Below, one piece after another: positions 18,001 through 39,000 of a DNA stretch of 64,000 nt (its first letter is position 1; each line of letters begins with the position of its first letter). The stretch lies in the NCBI GenBank assembly GCA_001567245.1, contig LMZU01000016.1:467-64466 (forward strand), written 5' to 3'. This stretch comes from Microgenomates bacterium OLB23 (lineage in GTDB: Bacteria > Patescibacteriota > Microgenomatia > UBA1406 > HO2-37-13b). Position numbers: made by a program.

Positions 18001-21000
18001 CCTCACCCTTATTAATTGCAGATTCAAGCAGTGCCTGTTTTATTTTTTCTCGTGCGAATGGGTCTTGTAGGTATTGTTCGGCAAGTGCTTTTGCAGCGTT
18101 AACTCTTTGCCTTGGATCAATAATTGCAACAAAATATTCTGCCAAAGCAGGGTGAGTACTAAGAAACTTACCTGTTTGCTTAATAACCTGTTGACCCTCA
18201 GTGGTTGCCTTAAACTCTGCAAAGCTCTTTTGATCATCAAAATACTCTTTTACAGCATCAAGTATTGTGCTTGCTCTATTGAAGCGTGTTTCATAACCAC
18301 TAGGAGGTGTTGCCCCTAACAGTCGATCAATACTCCCATTATCTCTCAGTATCCCAATAGACACATCAAGATTTGCACGTAATATATCTATACTCACCTG
18401 CTCGCCAGCGGCAATTTCAAGCCCAGTAAAAACATCTTCGTCTGCCTCTGCCCTTAATGTTGCAGCAACCTTTTTGGCATGTTCTTTTCTTACAGGCACC
18501 GTTGACGATTCTGCTCTTGCTACCGCCTCTTGTGCTATTTCGCGTAATGTATCTGACATAATTAGTTTACTTTTGAATCATCTAGTGACTGTATATAAGC
18601 AGATAATTTGTCTATAACTTCTTTTTCTTTTTCTTCTACAACCTTACCTGCCTCTACTGTTTGCGTATTCTTAAACACCGGCCATTTTTCGTTAAGCTCT
18701 GCAAGAAACCCATCTACCTCGTTTTCGGAAATAGAACTGGTTCTATCGAGAATAAACCTAGCGGCTTCACGCATTTGTGACATTGAAAGCTGTTCAGATT
18801 CGACAGCGGCAATAAGGTCATCCAAAAGTTTTTTTGAAGAGTATGAACAAAACTATTATCCGCATTATCGTTATGCATATTGAACTATAGCACGTTTAAA
18901 AAAGTACTGTCAAGCGTATTACTGCTGCTGGGGTTGCACAGACCCAGCAGACGGAGCAGAAAAATCTGGAAGATCGGGTTGTGACTTAGACTCCAAATCT
19001 GAGAGCACCCCATCGAGCTGACTTTGTGGGTTTGCCGGTGCCATGTTTGGTGTTACGGGGCTTGCCGTGGTTGCTACCGCCTCAACGGGCGCAGCAACTG
19101 GTGCAGGGGCTGTTGCCGCGGTTGACATTGCAGACATATCGGGCATTGTTGGCATTACAGGAGCTGAAGCAGTGCCTATAGGGGCAGCAGCGGGTGCAAC
19201 TGACATATCGGGCGCTTCGTCTATACCTGGCATACTTGGCATGTTAGGGGTTGCATCTGGCATTGATGAGGTGGTATCAGATGGAGCACTGGTTTCATCA
19301 TTAGCCGGCATAGCCATATCATCAGCTGCTGGCATGGCTGGTTCTGCAGCTGGCATAGGGGCTGCCGCATCAGGAGTGGCTGTTAAAGTTTCTGCTGGAG
19401 CTCCAGAAGATAGTCCAAGTGCTGTTTCAAACTCACTTTGAGTAAATCCTTTGAGCCCTACTTTTTCTCCGCTGTCTTTTTCAATCATGGTAAACGGCAC
19501 ACCTGCAAATTTGTCAGAAACATCAAGCATTTCTGTAAGGAATTGTCGATTTTCTTGAACATTTTTTTTCTTCAAATTGAAGTCCTTTGGTGGTGAGGAA
19601 GTCTTTTTTCTTGCTTACAAAACGGGCAGTCTGTAATAGTATAAACGGTTATTTTCATAATCTACGATTCACTATAATTAGTTTTAATTTCGTTGTCAAG
19701 AACTATTGTGAATTCTCTACCCATTGTGTACCATCCTACATATGGGATTGCTTAAACATTACCCGGTGAGTTTTATTTTTTGTATAGTTATATTTTTGAC
19801 ACATATACATAGTGCACATGCCGCATATTTATACCTCGACCCCACCACAGGTACCATTAACAGCAGCACGGCAAGACTTGAAGTAAAAGTTCGCATTAAT
19901 ACCGAAGGCGAAAAACCCACAACAACAGATGCAATTATTTCTTACGACGCAGCAAAGCTGAAGGTTGTACAGGTAAAAGAACCAGGACAAAGCGAAAAAT
20001 TCTTTCCACGCTTTTTTCTTAACAGCAAGCCCGGCAAGGTGTTTGTAGGATCTGCAATATTGCCACAAGGCACCCCACAGTCGGGCGATGGGCTTATCGC
20101 AACAATTGTTTTTGAAGGCGTAAGCGATGGAGCAGCCACTGCCAGCGTAGTTTGTGAAGATGGCAAAACCACCGATTCTAACATTACCCTAAAAAAAACC
20201 AGCGTGTTACTGATATTGCCGACTGCAGCAAAACCACCAGCTCAACCATAACCATAAGTGGCGTTGGTGGAGGAACAATTACTCCAACTTTGGGGCTTAG
20301 TGGAACTCCAAGACCTTCACCAACATCGAGACTTAGCGCTACTCCTGCACCATCTACAACAACGCCAACACTTGCACCAACCCTTACTGCAACCAATACT
20401 CCTACCCCATCGCTATCGCCTACTCCTAGCACTACCCCTTCTCAATTACCAGAAACCGGCAACATCGAACCAACTACCATTGCTATATCTGTAGGCATAG
20501 CATTAACAGTGCTCAGTATTATTATTAAAATGCTCTTATGAACAATTTCATGAATACATTAAAAAACCTTAAACCATCTACCCTGCTTATTCTTTTTTCT
20601 GCATTGCTATTGCCGCTGGTTTTAGGCGGCATATATTACACCACACAAATTCGATCAAAAGCATCTGGGAGCGCTGAAATTTTAGATGCAAAAGCGGTGC
20701 GCATATCTAATGTGGCCGCCGAAATTTCGTTTCGCACAAGTATTGCTGTACAAACCACCCTGCAGTGCGCCTTATCTCGTACAGGAGTGCGCTTTTTTGC
20801 GGGCGAAGACGCAGATGCCACTACACAACACCTTATTAATACCCAACAATTTAATGTGACACTAAATACAAATACTCCTTACTACTGCTATATATATAGT
20901 GGTGACCAAAAGCCTACAGAAATTTTTGTACCTGCTAGCCCACTCAGCAAAACATTTGGCATAGATGGCTCTGCATTCTCTAATGATGTATATGGGGCTT

Positions 21001-36000: not shown

Positions 36001-39000
36001 ATCAAAATACCCAACTACAGAAAACGAGGCAAATGTGCGTAGCTCTGGAGCTGTTTCGTGTGTTACTGCAGCACCAACTGCAACACCTGTTCACACCTTA
36101 ACCCCATCACCAACAGCAACTTCTACACCAACACCAACACCGGTGCGTGCAACTACCCCTAACCCCGGCACAGGCACGCCTGTTCCCGATGCAGATGCTG
36201 GTTACTACACAAGCATTTTCGTTTTATAATGGCTCGTCACGCGCGGTTACCAGCATTACCACACTCACCTGCTACGGCGCCTCCAAGTCTGATTGTGTAT
36301 CTGAGTTGGTAAATACGTCTATTCAACCACGACAAAGGGGTACTGTAGAAACAGATCTTGTGCTACCTCGAGGCGTAAATGATTATGTGGTTAAGTGTCG
36401 TGTAACATTTGCTGGCAGTTCAACTCCAGTAAACTGCCCCAATGAGGTAGCAACACCACTGCGACAAAACGTGCTTTATCGTATTTCAGCTTCAGATGGG
36501 GGCATAACAGGACAAGGAGTTACAGAGATTGATGCATGTGATGTAAACAACGATGCGTGCTGTAACGCAAATGATTTTTCTGTTGTTGCAACTAAATATG
36601 CCGAAGAAATTAACCCAACTGAACAAAATGCATCGGACATAAATGGTGATGGCATTATTAATGGTTTTGACCTCGTATTCACGCAGGCCAACTTTGGAAA
36701 AGGTCAAGGGTGTAGACTTAATCTTGCTCCAGAATTGAACCCTGAATTGCGTCGGGAACCGTAGTCTTCAAACTACGTTTTTTAGAAGATGATTTGGTTG
36801 TTTTTGTAGATGCTCCCTTTTTTGTTAATTCTGCCGGCCATGCACCCAACTCTTTAAGCTTCCACATAAAGAGCGCGCCTTTGCGGCGCGCGCCAGAATC
36901 TACAACAAATTGCAATGCCTTGTGCAATACGGGCCTTGGCAATTGCTTTGCCAGGCGTATGTATAGTGCTTTATGGCGTTCGTCCTCTAGTTTTTCGGCA
37001 AGATGAACGCCAAACGACTGATATTCACGCGAAATATAGCGGTCTTTAGTAGGATTAAAGGTCTTGAGCACATCTTTTATTGAGTCCATGCTGACATTAG
37101 TATACAGTATTGCAATGGCCCATAATAATGATATAATGTGAGCATGTTTGCACCATTTATACAGTATTTATTGCAGAGCGGCGTATCGGAGTATGCATTG
37201 ATTGTGCTCCTTTTTTTGCCTATGGTTACCGCGCTCATTACATTCGCGCGCTATGTTATTGGTATCCGCACCATTAACATATATACCACTGTATTGCTTG
37301 CCTATGCCCTGCTCGATTTGGGCTACACGCCTAAAGGCAACATAGATTATGCAGCCACCATTATATATGGAGGTCTTATTATGTTTGCCATTTCTTCAAT
37401 TGGACTATGGATTCATCAGATACTATATGCCTCTCGCCTTCATTACCTTGCAAAAGTTAGTATTGTGTCTTCTTTTGCAGTTATGGGTGTTTTCACACTC
37501 CTATATGGGGCGACATTGGTTAATCAGGTTGATTTGAACATGATCAACCCTATTACCATACTTCTTTTTATTGTCGCGCTAGAGTCGTTGGTAAAAAGCT
37601 CTGTGCGCCATGGCATAAAAAAGGCTGTGTACTTAATGACCCATACTATTGTGCTTGCAATTGGTATTTTCTTTATCATGAGTCAAGAAATTATGCAAAA
37701 TGCCGTATTTGATTACCCCGAAATCTCACTGCTTATGATTGTGCTCAGCTTTATTGCTGGAAAGTGGCGCGGTCTTAAATTACTAGAGTTTATTCGCTTT
37801 AGAAACATTCTTAAACAAGACGTACATGATTCTGAAGATTTTGGCGAATAAGTCGCGTGTTTTTGGGTTTGAATGAACGCAATATATCGTACGTCAAAAA
37901 GTACAATCTTCCCTCTGCTCGAAAAGCTGCAGATAACAAAATTCTCACAAAAAATACTCAAAGAGGTTGAAGTGCCAACCACATTAGTGCTGCATGTTAT
38001 TAAAAATGTTGATCAATTAGCAAGTCTTGACGTTAATACACTGCCAAAAACATTTGTTGTAAAGCCAGGTAGTGGTGTCGCGGGGCAAGGCATTGAGATT
38101 ATATACAACCGCGACAAACAAGGTAATTTTATTAATGCGCAAGGTCATAAAATTTCTCCAGAGGCATTAAAAAATCTTATGGCCAACATTTTAGAGGGTG
38201 CATTCTCTCTAAACTATAGTCCAGATAAGGTGCTTATAGAAGAAAGAGTAAAACCACACCACAAACTGCGCCCCTTTAGCTACAAAGGTGTGCCAGACAT
38301 TCGCGTCATTGTGTTTAAAAAAGTGCCTGTTATGGCAATGGTGCGCTGGCCCACCAAAGATTCGGCGGGGCGCGCAAACTTTTCGCAAGGTGCCGCAGGC
38401 AGTGGAATAGACTTAGCCACCGGCATTACCACCCACACTATAAAACAAACTAGCGAGGGGCGCATTGTTGATCTTGAATTTGTTGATGGTACGCGTACGC
38501 GCTATTCGGGTTTTAAAGTGCCCTATTGGGATAAAATCCTAACATATGCGGTCAAAGCCGCTAAAGCTACCAACCTTGGTTTTTGTGGAGTTGACTTTCT
38601 TATAGATCGTGAACGCGGCCCGTTAATTGTAGAAATCAATGCCCGACCTGGATTACGCATACAACTGGCCAATCAAGATGGCCTTAAATGGAGGCTCGAA
38701 CAAATAAAGAGAGTTCGCATTAAAACTGTTTCGCATGGTATTCGCCTTGGTAAAGACTTGTTTGGCGGTGAAGTTGAAGAAGAAATTGAGGCAATCGCAG
38801 GTAAAAAGATAATTGGTCTTATTCAGCCAGTTAAACTGTATCATAAAACAGAAAAGCGCAGCATAACTATTATGGCAAAAGTTGATACTGGTGCAACCTA
38901 CTCCTCTATTGACCGACAAATTGCAATTGATCTTGGCTATGGCGAAGCCGTTGCTCAATTTGAAAAACTCAATATACCTAAACAAATTCTTACACGCGAA

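Follow-up and report, generated by a model that had tools for sequence, protein, structure and literature searches.

Why would a reduced-genome bacterium encode an array of cohesins and dockerins, the docking toolkit known from cellulosomes? The question is raised by a 64-kb stretch of chromosomal DNA (the window) from a member of the Microgenomates (CPR) that is placed near Roizmanbacteria and Woesebacteria. A small genome had been assumed in the initial annotation, in agreement with the closed chromosome of a close relative (OZ246401.1; 938 kb). That annotation placed the array at 19706-36764; cohesin and dockerin genes are indeed present there, but the system reaches beyond these coordinates. 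Searches of the six-frame translation of the window with local HMMs recovered exactly 7 cohesin ORFs and 10 dockerin ORFs. In total, the window encodes 7 single-cohesin anchored proteins, 10 exported proteins with a two-segment, Ca-loop dockerin, and 1 sortase. The best explanation of the whole, to which we assign a probability of roughly 60%, is a non-cellulosomal cohesin-dockerin system for surface display in this Microgenomates bacterium.

Anchored cohesins and dockerin-bearing proteins

HMMs and the predicted fold identify the cohesin modules as genuine, and HMMs do the same for the two-segment dockerins. All four small anchored cohesin proteins initially reported at 19.7 to 36.8 kb were genuine according to HMM, AlphaFold model, and Foldseek. 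Three ORFs exceeded the gathering score (24.1 bits) of Pfam Cohesin (PF00963), namely, 19724/19742 (24.3 bits), 24778/24787 (26.8 bits), and 34156 (33.9 bits). ORF 21146 scored under the cutoff (17.7 bits), yet its product shares 46% identity (E = 1e-57) with the 24787 protein, for which the AF2 model (pLDDT, 83.7) comprised a transmembrane (TM) helix at 14-39 followed by a beta-sandwich. The best 50 Foldseek matches of this model in the PDB were all cohesins; TM-scores normalised to the target were about 0.7 to 0.76 for single modules, with a sequence identity to solved cohesins of just 10 to 18%.

The anchors were also as first described. The first gene (G01; 19742..20541, plus strand) encodes a wall-anchored socket composed of a signal peptide, a single cohesin, a Pro/Thr linker, and LPETG with a hydrophobic tail, and intact orthologues of 265 to 270 aa occur in L002, L087, and L093. 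The other three, all on the plus strand, have strongly hydrophobic N-termini and are membrane-anchored single-cohesin sockets: G03 (21146..21715), a member of TM-cohesin alignment A1 with an N-terminal signal-anchor and a short Ser/Thr linker; G05 (24787..25332); and the divergent G10 (34038..34641), which shares 35 to 40% identity with G03 and G05.

A second cohesin/dockerin cluster is located on the minus strand at 5.2 to 11.7 kb. It encodes M02 (5228-5851), whose cohesin is followed by LPRTG and a TM tail, and two N-terminal TM cohesins (M03, 5888-6520; M04, 6529-7380). M02 and M03 scored 44.9 and 35.2 bits against Pfam Cohesin, and M04 matched a cohesin HMM built without it (E = 1e-13) and shares 25% identity with M03 (E = 6e-20). 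Of the seven cohesins in the window, two thus carry LPxTG sortase signals, and the other five are held on short stalks by N-terminal signal-anchors. The sortase gene (61366..61836, plus strand; Pfam Sortase, 86.7 bits) likely encodes the enzyme for both LPxTG cohesins.

Seven dockerin proteins had been proposed for the main array, and six were retained. Their Pfam Dockerin_1 (PF00404; gathering score, 22.9 bits) scores ranged from 27.5 to 31.8 bits (ORFs 21715, 25359/26578, 27648/27718, 28467/29239, 30128/31920, and 34645/36147). Each has two D.N.DG..N..D loops, which a six-frame motif scan located nowhere but in the coding frames of these six proteins. In a sequence search of the PDB with the 21715 dockerin, the best matches were all cellulosomal dockerins. 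The seventh candidate (20538..21092, plus strand), an exported 184-aa protein with one C-terminal EF-hand-like loop (DINQDGCVLLND), matched no Pfam or window-trained dockerin HMM at E <= 10. Because it has only this single loop and no dockerin match, the array holds six dockerin proteins, not seven. This protein has no Pfam match; there is a 4-nt overlap between its start and the G01 stop, and an orthologue in L002 is 78% identical.

The six proteins, all encoded on the plus strand, differ in their cargo. G04 (21715..24726; 1,003 aa) comprises a characteristic N-terminal motif ([KR]GE-TM; described below), an unknown N-domain, a Cys-rich linker, module X, a vWA domain, and a two-segment dockerin (Pfam VWA_2, VWA, and Dockerin_1, 59.5, 44.9, and 29.2 bits, respectively; MIDAS, DVSTS). 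G06 (25359..27651) is its paralogue, with [KR]GE-TM, module X, vWA/MIDAS, and dockerin. The annotated vWA payloads were thus borne out by VWA/VWA_2 matches with an intact DxSxS MIDAS in both. G07 (27648..28437; 262 aa) has a signal, module X, and a dockerin (27.5 bits), and G08 (28467..30141; 557 aa) has a signal peptide, an N-domain common to G11, domains Y and X, and a dockerin (28.1 bits). G09 (30128..34001; 1,290 aa) carries an RGS-TM N-terminus, domains Y and X, a C...C...CC module repeated about six to seven times, and a dockerin (30.4 bits). G11 (34645..36764) is a 705-aa Cys-rich protein with a divergent dockerin (30.6 bits; recognition positions A-N / G-F), and a terminator-like hairpin is found at its end (36760-36777). 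Cys-rich payloads, also noted initially, are present in G04, G09, and G11. Several all-beta or Cys-rich cargo modules have no known relatives, and a comparison of the payload regions with PDB sequences found none.

The remaining dockerin proteins lie outside the main array. Three belong to the minus-strand cluster (M05, 7377-8708, possibly continuous with 8776-9276; M07, 9269-10084; M08, 10092-10661), which also encodes a 32-Cys protein (10717-11697). Their Dockerin_1 scores were 34.1, 33.7, and 21.5 bits, respectively, and the first dockerin segment is degenerate. The fourth, R01 (47716..52778, minus strand), has RHS/YD repeats, a signal-anchor, and a two-segment dockerin in its N-terminal part (aa 61-125); it is split here by A-run frameshifts and is one intact 1,680-aa ORF in the closed relative genome. 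The dockerins of R01 and M08 do not reach the Pfam gathering score. Judged from the dockerin recognition residues and from how far the cohesins have diverged, the modules may fall into three or more specificity groups: the G03 and G05 cohesins with the dockerins of G04, G06 to G09, and R01; the G10 cohesin with the G11 dockerin; and the minus-strand cohesins with the dockerins of M05, M07, and M08.

Promoters, gene order, and occurrence in relatives

The three best plus-strand sigma-70 matches (11 to 12 of 12 positions) lie 6 to 7 nt upstream of the ATGs at 21146, 24787, and 34038. These are TTGACA-18-TAGAAT (21110..21139, ending 6 nt before the G03 ATG), TTGACA-18-TACAAT (24750..24779, 7 nt before the G05 ATG), and TTGACA-18-TATAAT (34002..34031; 12/12, 6 nt before the G10 ATG). 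Since the predicted promoters are so close to the start codons, leaderless mRNAs are suggested for the three TM-cohesins. All three promoters are conserved in three other genomes; for the first, L001 to L003 keep the hexamers and the ATG distance with divergent spacers.

One or more cargo genes directly follow each TM-cohesin gene of the main array. The initial annotation described a unit of promoter, TM-cohesin, and overlapping cargo start that occurs twice. Both promoters stand, as does the overlap at 21715 (TAATG), but at 25359 a 26-nt spacer separates G06 from the end of G05 (25332). The TM-cohesin profile matched 188 representatives of 50%-identity clusters at E <= 1e-10, the best 150 of which are mostly about 180 to 220 aa long. 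The order of TM-cohesin and then cargo is kept down to about 35% cohesin identity, and in readable distant contexts, a [KR]GE cargo gene adjoins the TM-cohesin gene. Such cargo is encoded directly downstream in L088/L100, L090, L091, L095, and L101, the 673-aa partner in L091 having no dockerin. The L089 contig stops 67 nt past the cohesin gene, and a [KR]GE dockerin protein is encoded approximately 3.4 kb upstream, across rplJ-rplL; on L090, another contig that encodes this cohesin, the downstream gene is visible.

Proposed surface display and alternative readings

For surface display, the dockerin proteins would be exported by Sec and then dock in a Ca-dependent manner onto the anchored cohesins, and this predicted docking would keep the cargo at the cell surface. 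The displayed set would comprise integrin-like vWA adhesin domains, unknown binding modules, and an RHS toxin shell, for contact with another cell or surface. CPR bacteria are commonly considered host dependent, a lifestyle that such a role fits, and host contact is possibly the use of the displayed cargo. As adhesin-like (vWA), Cys-rich, and toxin-like (RHS) proteins take the place of cellulases among the cargo, the docking toolkit known from cellulosomes seems to serve surface display in a bacterium with a tiny genome. Most of the plug-and-socket scaffold proposed earlier was upheld, namely, the module identities, the anchors, the vWA/MIDAS and Cys-rich cargo, and the absence of detectable CAZymes; the binding of dockerins to cohesins is what we infer from the sequences.

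The alternative that survives best concerns the cargo N-termini, some of which share M-x(6-12)-[KR]-G-E-[IV]-[AS]-[ST]-x-L-T and, after it, a stretch of about 20 hydrophobic residues. Cargo proteins that are otherwise unrelated carry this motif, both in the window and in contexts as distant as about 35% cohesin identity, and it is confined to such N-termini. It may keep the cargo membrane bound or route it elsewhere. It could conceivably be a dedicated sorting signal (class-III/prepilin-like or Tad-pseudopilin-like) or a permanent anchor, so that cargo would not be released and captured, although we consider this unlikely. Docking would then be a second tether of the C-terminus in cis, a step in a pilus-associated or envelope-spanning assembly, or a trans contact between cells, which is likewise doubtful. 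Besides the conservation of the motif, this reading is favored by two features of the TM-cohesins, a conserved motif on the cytoplasmic side ([DQ]F..L.P..K) and stalks that are very short. In addition, vWA modules occur on pilus-associated proteins, and the solved structure nearest in sequence to the G04 vWA domain, by a weak match (E = 4e-4), is the vWA of the SpaC pilus-tip adhesin. As in TadG-type proteins and in vWA pilus-tip adhesins of Gram-positive bacteria such as SpaC, an exported protein that starts with a hydrophobic segment bears a vWA with MIDAS. However, no cargo N-terminus matched TadE (PF07811), Tad (PF13400), or prepilin N-terminal models (Pfam and NCBIfam) at E <= 1, and the earlier label "TadG-like" was therefore dropped. 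The Glu follows the Gly directly (+1) rather than at +5; no pilus-assembly genes, including a tad locus like that of Tad/Flp pili, were present among the window ORFs scanned; and G07, G08, and G11 have ordinary signal-peptide-like N-termini. A C-terminal dockerin is, to our knowledge, not a feature of TadG or sortase pilins.

It appears improbable that the array is a true, if minimal, cellulosome-like complex that captures or degrades polysaccharides, with the beta-sandwich and Cys-rich modules acting as unrecognised carbohydrate-binding or catalytic domains. The precedent for this reading is a "Candidatus Shapirobacterales" (Microgenomates) MAG from Olkiluoto groundwater, whose cohesin and dockerin proteins were found in a metaproteome and published as a cellulosome on the basis of GH and PL genes elsewhere in the genome; architecture, anchors, cargo, and gene order were not described (bioRxiv 10.1101/2021.08.21.457207). 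That organism belongs to the same CPR supergroup and expresses both protein types, whereas no dockerin protein in the window has a CAZyme domain. On the metagenomic contig L092, a TM-cohesin relative is located beside a 9-cohesin scaffoldin and a GH44 enzyme ending in a two-segment dockerin, and a polysaccharide-related role is therefore possible for the wider TM-cohesin family. The all-beta AF2 model of G09 domains Y and X has low confidence (pLDDT, 63.6) and yielded no meaningful Foldseek match, so cryptic carbohydrate-binding modules in the payloads are possible. Against a cellulosome, GH, PL, CE, and CBM families were absent at E <= 0.1 from all 10 dockerin proteins of the window, as initially stated for glycoside hydrolases and CBMs, and from the precomputed Pfam lists of intact orthologues. 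Neither a multi-cohesin scaffoldin nor a CBM is encoded in the window, vWA/MIDAS and RHS make up the recognisable cargo, and the payload regions are without sequence relatives in the PDB.

Six of the 11 array genes are broken by single-base homopolymer indels in the assembly, and eight single-base frameshifts occur within 17 kb: G01 (A8, ~20191), G06 (A6, ~26595), G07 (T8, ~27712), G08 (T5, ~29363), G09 (A7, ~31876), G10 (~34201), and G11 (C8, ~34869; ~36156-36222). Because three GTDB genomes and several metagenome contigs carry intact orthologues in synteny, the splits are, on this comparative evidence, homopolymer assembly errors. A decaying locus of pseudogenes, or phase variation by slipped-strand mispairing at homopolymers, might be read from so many frameshifts in surface-protein genes, several at A7-A8, T8, and C8 runs, but is highly improbable, as the orthologues are intact in L001 to L003, L087, L093, and L099, with tracts interrupted at the frameshift sites, some tracts are just 5 to 6 nt, and unrelated window genes (DUF2207 and RHS) are also split, both being intact in the closed relative genome.

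Relation to known systems

Among cellulosomal proteins, Ruminococcus flavefaciens ScaE is a sortase-anchored single cohesin that docks the cellulosome and the adhesin CttA. G01 and M02 resemble it in combining a single cohesin, a Pro/Thr linker, and LPxTG, with a sortase gene in the same window, and would likewise be sockets for dockerin proteins; the partners of ScaE include a non-enzymatic adhesin. The R. flavefaciens cohesins ScaC, ScaB, and ScaG were among the Foldseek matches of the G05 model. In contrast to the ScaE system, scaffoldins, CBMs, and glycoside hydrolases are lacking in the window, its source is a CPR bacterium and not a Firmicute, and most sockets are N-terminally membrane anchored, an arrangement that we do not know from cellulosomes.

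ANME archaea are rich in cohesins and dockerins, which have been hypothesised to act in cell-cell contact (PMC5244752). They share with the window an expanded cohesin/dockerin content and a proposed adhesion role, and they are syntrophic or contact dependent. In contrast, they are archaea that co-encode many carbohydrate-binding domains, and the account in PMC5244752 does not describe a comparable socket-plus-cargo operon structure for them.

The initial annotation considered the array a candidate undescribed system. This is an overstatement, since Microgenomates cohesin and dockerin proteins have already appeared in a metaproteome and non-cellulosomal modules are an already documented phenomenon. 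Such modules were catalogued by Peer et al. (2009, FEMS Microbiol Lett 291:1, as cited in PMC5244752), and cohesins and dockerins are known from organisms and proteins that have no part in cellulose use, mostly without an assigned function. Examples of such modules, an Archaeoglobus fulgidus cohesin (2xdh) and Clostridium perfringens glycosidase/toxin cohesins (2jh2, 2vo8, and 2w1n), are among the Foldseek matches of the G05 model, at ranks 16, 19, 24, and 25. Unlike the catalogued modules, those of the window form a dense operonic array (7 cohesins and 10 dockerins in 64 kb) with vWA/MIDAS and RHS cargo and conserved N-terminal motifs on both partners.

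Cohesins, dockerins, and surface anchors

Eleven closely packed plus-strand genes (G01 to G11; 19.7-36.8 kb) form the main cohesin/dockerin array. The Pfam Cohesin profile (PF00963; gathering score, 24.1 bits) matched G01 (19742; 24.3 bits), G05 (24787; 26.8 bits), and G10 (34038; 33.9 bits), together with M02 and M03 (44.9 and 35.2 bits) of a second, minus-strand cluster. G03 (21146) scored 17.7 bits, under the gathering score, and M04 of the second cluster had no Pfam match. G03 is 46% identical to G05 (E value of 1e-57), and M04 was recovered at an E value of 1e-13 by a window cohesin HMM built without it; judged by their sequences, both are clear cohesin paralogues despite their Pfam scores. 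A look-up of the exact G03 sequence found no record.

The AlphaFold2 model of G05, the sole cohesin modelled, was built from a 19-sequence alignment (mean pLDDT of 83.7). In it, an N-terminal helix (residues 14 to 39) is followed by a beta-sandwich, in line with the nine-stranded jelly-roll fold of solved cohesins. The best 50 PDB matches of this model in Foldseek were all cohesins (types I, II, and III and non-cellulosomal; E values of 6e-9 to 2e-5), with target-normalised TM-scores of about 0.7 to 0.76 for single-module entries. They include R. flavefaciens ScaC, C. acetobutylicum CohA2, and C. thermocellum CipA, OlpA, and OlpC, as well as the non-cellulosomal cohesin of A. fulgidus and cohesins of C. 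perfringens. Because of these matches, the small G-cluster proteins are predicted to be cohesins rather than generic Ig folds. The initial annotation had named unrelated Ig-like folds among the results that would overturn it, and the G05 model does not show one. Its four cohesin-like proteins stand, three of them above the PF00963 cutoff and G03 by paralogy to G05, with the fold backed by the G05 model.

Each of the seven window cohesin proteins carries a single cohesin. G01 terminates in LPETG plus a hydrophobic tail, M02 has an LPRTG sorting signal, and a sortase gene lies at 61366-61836 (plus strand; 86.7 bits); the cell-surface anchoring of cohesin proteins that is expected of a cellulosome is thus present. 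M03 and M04 are cohesins with an N-terminal transmembrane (TM) segment, and strongly hydrophobic N-terminal segments occur in all G-cluster proteins. No SLH domains were found. Local HMMs applied to the six-frame translation recovered exactly 7 cohesin and 10 dockerin open reading frames (ORFs) in the 64 kb. M06 (8776-9276), considered as an eighth cohesin, was missed by both Pfam and the local HMM and was rejected.

The Dockerin_1 profile (PF00404; gathering score, 22.9 bits) matched G04 (29.2 bits), G06 (31.8), G07 (27.5), G08 (28.1), G09 (30.4), and G11 (30.6) in the main array and M05 (34.1) and M07 (33.7) in the second cluster; M08 (21.5) and R01, a dockerin-RHS/YD protein (19.9; 19.0 in its intact orthologue), scored under the cutoff. 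A dockerin is built from two copies of a segment some 22 residues long, and each copy comprises an EF-hand-like Ca loop (D-x-[ND]-x-[DN]-G-x-x-[ND]-x-x-D) and then a helix. Two canonical Ca loops, 29 to 32 residues apart, are present in G04, G06 to G09, G11, and R01; in M05, M07, and M08, the first loop is degenerate and the second is canonical. Such loops were confined to the coding frames of dockerin genes in a six-frame motif scan, and the best PDB sequence matches of the G04 tail were all cellulosomal dockerins. HMM and fold evidence place the docking modules in the cohesin and dockerin families. Seven dockerin proteins had been proposed for the array, of which the six that exceed the PF00404 cutoff are upheld; the seventh (G02; 20538) has no HMM support, its tail holding one EF-hand-like loop without a match in Pfam or to a window-trained HMM (E value of ≤10).

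At dockerin positions 10 and 11, G04 and G06 to G09 have T-x and [SA]-L, and G11 has A-N and G-F. Together with the divergence of the G10 cohesin and the third type represented by the minus-strand dockerins, these recognition positions suggest that at least three cohesin-dockerin specificity groups may exist, roughly following gene neighborhoods.

The array is real and was correctly spotted in the initial annotation, but the system is larger than described there, since the second cluster, R01, and the sortase gene also lie in the window. The second cluster (5.2-11.7 kb, minus strand) encodes the cohesins M02, M03, and M04, the dockerin proteins M05, M07, and M08, and a 32-Cys protein. M05 (7377-9276 region, minus strand) has no N-terminal signal, and its open frame overlaps the terminal part of M06, the TM protein upstream of it. 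M08 and M09 (10092-11697, minus strand) are also without clear N termini, and all three are probably further frameshift-split genes. M06 may be the N-terminal part of M05, the two forming one exported dockerin protein.

Cargo modules and N-terminal motifs

The dockerin-bearing proteins (i.e., the cargo) carry diverse modules. G04 and G06 matched VWA_2 (59.5 and 55.5 bits) and VWA (44.9 and 40.8 bits) and retain an intact DxSxS MIDAS motif (DVSTS at residue 724 of G04 and DTSTS at residue 477 of G06), in agreement with the vWA/MIDAS payloads first proposed. The downstream MIDAS Thr and Asp (LTDG) were seen by direct reading of the sequence. The nearest solved relatives of the vWA domains, weakly matched, are the pilus-tip adhesin SpaC and collagen VI. 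Glycoside hydrolase (GH), PL, CE, and CBM families were absent from all 10 window dockerin proteins (Pfam; E value of ≤0.1) and likewise from the precomputed Pfam lists of orthologues, which bears out the earlier statement that the array lacks glycoside hydrolases and CBMs.

An all-against-all comparison revealed a shared module X (C.FDAVAYV to GCG..v.YGW) in G04, G06, G07, G08, and G09, positioned directly before the vWA domain or the dockerin; in G09 it immediately precedes the Cys-rich region, which has about six to seven C...C...CC repeats. An N-domain is common to G08 and G11, and a domain Y is common to G08 and G09. Cargo modules other than vWA and RHS had no match in Pfam, NCBIfam, or PDB sequence searches; the PDB queries without a match included the N-terminal 700 residues of G04, the middle of G11, the Cys-rich region of G09, and R01. 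Homologue searches with the C-terminal half of G08 and the N-terminal half of G09 returned the query itself or one match (P0019), too few for a good alignment. An AlphaFold2 model of domains Y and X of G09 (7 sequences) was all-beta with low confidence (pLDDT of 63.6), and its Foldseek matches, to Gram-positive pilins and Ig-like folds at TM-scores of only about 0.2, were uninformative.

R01 (47716-52778, minus strand) is an RHS/YD-repeat protein with an N-terminal dockerin (residues 61 to 125), the tenth in the window, which matched the G-cluster dockerins in BLASTP at E values of 1e-5 to 3e-7. The region at 48194-49744 matched RHS_repeat (E value of 5.8e-15) and YD_repeat_2x (39.6 bits), and an intact 1680-aa orthologue in the closed relative genome (OZ246401.1) combines RHS_repeat (42.8 bits) with an N-terminal dockerin (19 bits). 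No C-terminal toxin domain was identified in R01. Three paralogous genes lie downstream of the dockerin-RHS gene (window 43768-47738, minus strand; 14009-17983 in the related locus L097), each having its own signal-like N terminus, a region resembling the RHS core tip (...YYPYG...FTGHR...ARFYNPQLG...NP..Y.DP.G), and a different C-terminal domain. One such domain is trypsin-like in the window, and a weak transglutaminase-like match was seen in L097. This layout resembles a polymorphic-toxin tip array, but the export signals are independent.

Two N-terminal motifs recur. G04 and G06 begin with M-x(6-12)-[KR]-G-E-[IV]-[AS]-[ST]-x-L-T followed by a hydrophobic stretch, and G09 has an RGS variant (window 21745, 25392, and 30152, respectively). 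This [KR]GE motif, 8 to 14 residues past the Met, occurs on otherwise unrelated cargo beside TM-cohesin genes (i.e., genes for small single-cohesin proteins with an N-terminal membrane anchor); in the loci scanned, it was restricted to such N termini, and it is also present in the related loci L088, L089, L090, L091, L095, L100, and L101. It matched no Pfam or NCBIfam signal model. The TM-cohesins (N termini at 21146-21230, 24787-24860, and 34038-34130, plus strand) share a conserved motif, [DQ]F..L.P..K, on the cytoplasmic side immediately ahead of the TM helix; it extends across the family to an E value of about 1e-12 against the family profile (P0020 to P0168) and could act in sorting or interaction.

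The cargo proteins had initially been described as TadG-like, and the [KR]GE[IV]AS.LT segment has what we take to be a resemblance to the Tad consensus. That description was abandoned: TadE (PF07811), Tad (PF13400), and prepilin families gave no Pfam match (E value of ≤1) in the 60-residue N termini of G04, G06, and G09 and no NCBIfam match (E value of ≤1) in the N termini of G04, G06, and the L095 homologue or in full-length G04. No pilus-assembly ATPase, platform protein, or prepilin peptidase was found among the window ORFs scanned with Pfam, a set that covers part of the small ORFs.

Promoters, gene order, and conservation

The MreB protein of the window is 95 to 97% identical to those of three metagenome-assembled genomes (MAGs), one with a closed 938,475-bp chromosome (OZ246401.1), and 87% identical to those of Candidatus Roizmanbacteria and Woesebacteria; lower matches were all to Microgenomates or other Patescibacteria. 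On the basis of these matches, the window is assigned to the chromosome of a Microgenomates bacterium within the candidate phyla radiation (CPR). The three MAGs, like many other CPR/Microgenomates MAGs from a large co-assembly project (L001 to L003, L004 to L006, and others, with isolate names SRPxxxx_coN_NNN and binchicken_*), were deposited as 'uncultured Gammaproteobacteria bacterium', a misleading placeholder. The array adjoins rplJ-rplL and is syntenic in all relatives, and an origin from a mobile element or phage was set aside on this ground. Array proteins are 49 to 83% identical between the window and L002, compared with 96% for MreB, and are fast-evolving, as is typical of surface proteins.

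Sigma-70-like matches were overall no more numerous than in shuffled sequence. However, the top three on the plus strand (TTGACA-18-TAGAAT at 21110, TTGACA-18-TACAAT at 24750, and TTGACA-18-TATAAT at 34002) end 6 to 7 nt before the ATGs of the three TM-cohesin genes of the array. L001 to L003 preserve the hexamers, the 18 nt between them, and their distance from the ATG but differ in spacer sequence, a pattern that supports these being real promoters with leaderless transcripts and that confirms the start codons first assigned at 21146, 24787, and 34038. A unit comprising a promoter, a TM-cohesin gene, and an overlapping cargo gene had been said to occur twice. The promoter does precede the TM-cohesin both times, but the overlapping start occurs only once, where the G04 start overlaps the G03 stop (TAATG); G06 begins 26 nt after G05. 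The same arrangement of a near-consensus promoter abutting a start codon (TTGACA-N17/18-TAnnnT-N6/7-ATG) recurs at several genes and is conserved in relatives. It is found at 16209-16247 (plus strand; HTH_17 gene), 18913-18876 (minus strand; unknown gene), and, with the same sites in L001 to L003, at the TM-cohesin genes (21110-21148, 24750-24789, and 34002-34040, plus strand). This recurrence suggests that leaderless mRNAs may be frequent in the lineage.

A search of genome contigs with the TM-cohesin alignment matched the same three MAGs only. The family profile, searched against 1.84 billion representative proteins, gave 1483, 188, and 54 matches at E values of ≤1e-3, ≤1e-10, and ≤1e-30, respectively. 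Most of the 150 best-scoring matches are 180 to 220 aa long and aligned end to end, TM segment included; the matches listed also contain a few giants with 9 to 20 cohesins (P0053 and P0085, with 14 and 20 cohesin stretches). Wherever a distant context had a readable downstream gene (L088/L100, L090, L091, L095, and L101; cohesins as little as about 35% identical), a [KR]GE-motif protein is encoded immediately after the TM-cohesin. The gene pair whose distribution had been in question is found well beyond the close relatives, with the qualification that the L091 partner lacks a dockerin. L101 has the order TM-cohesin, 869-aa RGE-type dockerin protein, G07-like dockerin protein, and G09-like protein. 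The L089 contig ends 67 nt past its TM-cohesin gene; the gene that follows can be read in L090, a separate contig encoding the same cohesin. In L089, a motif-bearing 1097-aa dockerin protein is encoded about 3.4 kb upstream of the TM-cohesin, across rplJ-rplL.

Proposed function and neighboring genes

From the domain identities, anchors, export signals, gene order, promoters, and conservation documented for the array, we infer, as most likely, a mechanism in which cargo would be exported and its dockerin would bind Ca2+ and plug into an anchored cohesin. Two sockets (G01 and M02), which have long Pro/Thr linkers, would be wall-linked by sortase, and the other five (G03, G05, G10, M03, and M04) would be tethered to the membrane through a short stalk; docking would retain the cargo at the cell surface. 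The MIDAS adhesin domains and RHS shell among the cargo types point to contact with another cell or surface, in keeping with the dependence on hosts that is ascribed to CPR bacteria. A more far-reaching reading is that leaderless TM-cohesins bearing [DQ]F..L.P..K and dockerin cargo bearing [KR]GE-TM would form the core of a previously undescribed, lineage-wide Microgenomates/CPR surface-presentation machinery, in which both motifs would be new sorting signals and interchangeable vWA adhesins and an RHS toxin would serve contact-dependent host attachment and attack. We give this wider, tentative reading a probability of about one in four.

The conserved [KR]GE-TM motif on the cargo could instead mark the cargo for a sorting or pilus-like pathway of its own, or for tethering to the membrane at two points. 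We regard this alternative as doubtful; it is compatible with much of the docking mechanism and would alter the way in which cargo is displayed.

A true cellulosome-like polysaccharide system is improbable for the window, although both a related locus and a published reading favor it. In L092 (JGI 3300065536, Ga0616349_0002182; 1830-13270), a related TM-cohesin lies near a scaffoldin (P0021; 2276 aa, 9 cohesins, Big_7/fn3 domains, and a C-terminal dockerin) and a GH44 enzyme ending in a two-segment dockerin; this is a bona fide cellulosome-like context, and the contig also carries two cupredoxin genes. The published reading concerns Shapirobacterales; cohesin and dockerin proteins of a Microgenomates MAG, found in a metaproteome, have been called a cellulosome (bioRxiv 10.1101/2021.08.21.457207). 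Cellulosomes have dockerin-borne CAZymes and a multi-cohesin scaffoldin, usually with a CBM. By this definition, the window system does not qualify as a cellulosome, because its 10 dockerin proteins include no CAZyme, its cohesins are all single, and neither a multi-cohesin scaffoldin nor a CBM is present. Non-cellulosomal cohesin and dockerin modules are known in all domains of life, with function unknown, according to Peer et al. (2009) as cited in PMC5244752, and cohesins and dockerins of ANME archaea have been proposed to act in cell contact (PMC5244752).

The nearest architectural analogue of G01 and M02 known to us is ScaE of R. flavefaciens, a sortase-anchored single cohesin that also docks the adhesin CttA. 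In the literature searched, we found nothing on an N-terminal-TM single-cohesin family or its operonic pairing with [KR]GE-TM cargo, on vWA and RHS cargo of this kind, or on the two conserved N-terminal motifs or the leaderless promoter layout.

Frameshifts split 6 of the 11 array genes, and a single-base change in a homopolymer (A8, A6, T8, T5, A7, C8, and others) restores each ORF. Intact orthologues exist in three GTDB genomes and several metagenome contigs (270, 178, 190, 1001, 184, 850, 264, 576, 1193, and 210 aa in L002). DNA alignments at five of seven sites examined placed the indel at the window homopolymer in all five, and the tracts of the relatives are mostly interrupted at those positions. 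The same kind of split affects unrelated genes: DUF2207 is broken into three parts in the window and is one 566-aa ORF in the closed genome, and the RHS gene, split at A-runs in the window, is a single ORF there. Examples of such sites are 20191, 26595, 27712, 29363, 31876, 34869, ~49840, ~48190, and 53673-54158, an indel pattern typical of long-read consensus errors. Because relatives are intact, the indels sit at window homopolymers, and unrelated genes are also affected, the array frameshifts are best read as assembly errors, and a decaying or phase-variable locus, which the split genes might otherwise imply, is very improbable. ORF calls in the window consequently need frame correction.

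To our knowledge, next to nothing has been established about the means by which Microgenomates and most other CPR members attach to and exploit other cells, and we know of no cultured member of this Microgenomates lineage. The locus offers concrete, testable attachment candidates, combining dense anchored sockets with exchangeable cargo, integrin-like vWA/MIDAS domains, and an RHS toxin shell. Its 7 cohesins and 10 dockerins fall within 64 kb, and a close relative has a closed genome of about 0.94 Mb. It also corrects a tempting misannotation, in which cohesin/dockerin matches in CPR genomes are taken as cellulose degradation. The small TM-cohesin family is large (the 188 matches at an E value of ≤1e-10 are clusters at 50% identity) and unnamed, the two N-terminal motifs may be new sorting signals, and orthogonal cohesin-dockerin pairs would be useful protein-engineering parts.

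Several neighboring genes deserve mention. Two genes at 16436-18559 and 18919-19575 (both minus strand) immediately precede the array and keep their synteny in relatives. One encodes a 707-aa coiled-coil protein with a Gly/Ala-rich hydrophobic C terminus; the other encodes a 218-aa Pro/Ala/Met-rich protein whose orthologues have a Glutaredoxin Pfam match. Between the two clusters (13736-15888, plus strand) lies a gene for a secreted subtilase (Peptidase_S8, with a fervidolysin-like prodomain) that lacks a dockerin. Directly downstream of the array (37138-40993, plus strand), a 7TM_transglut membrane protein gene is followed by three ATP-grasp genes (ATPgrasp_ST, RimK-like, and RimK-like), and this gene group may be a cassette for peptide ligation or modification. 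A 'phage metallopeptidase' family gene is located at 54918-55316 (minus strand). Two ATP-citrate-lyase-type genes (Citrate_bind, ATP-citrate synthase ATP-grasp, and CoA-ligase domains) occupy 61883-63867 (plus strand); such domains are unexpected for a CPR genome of minimal metabolism.
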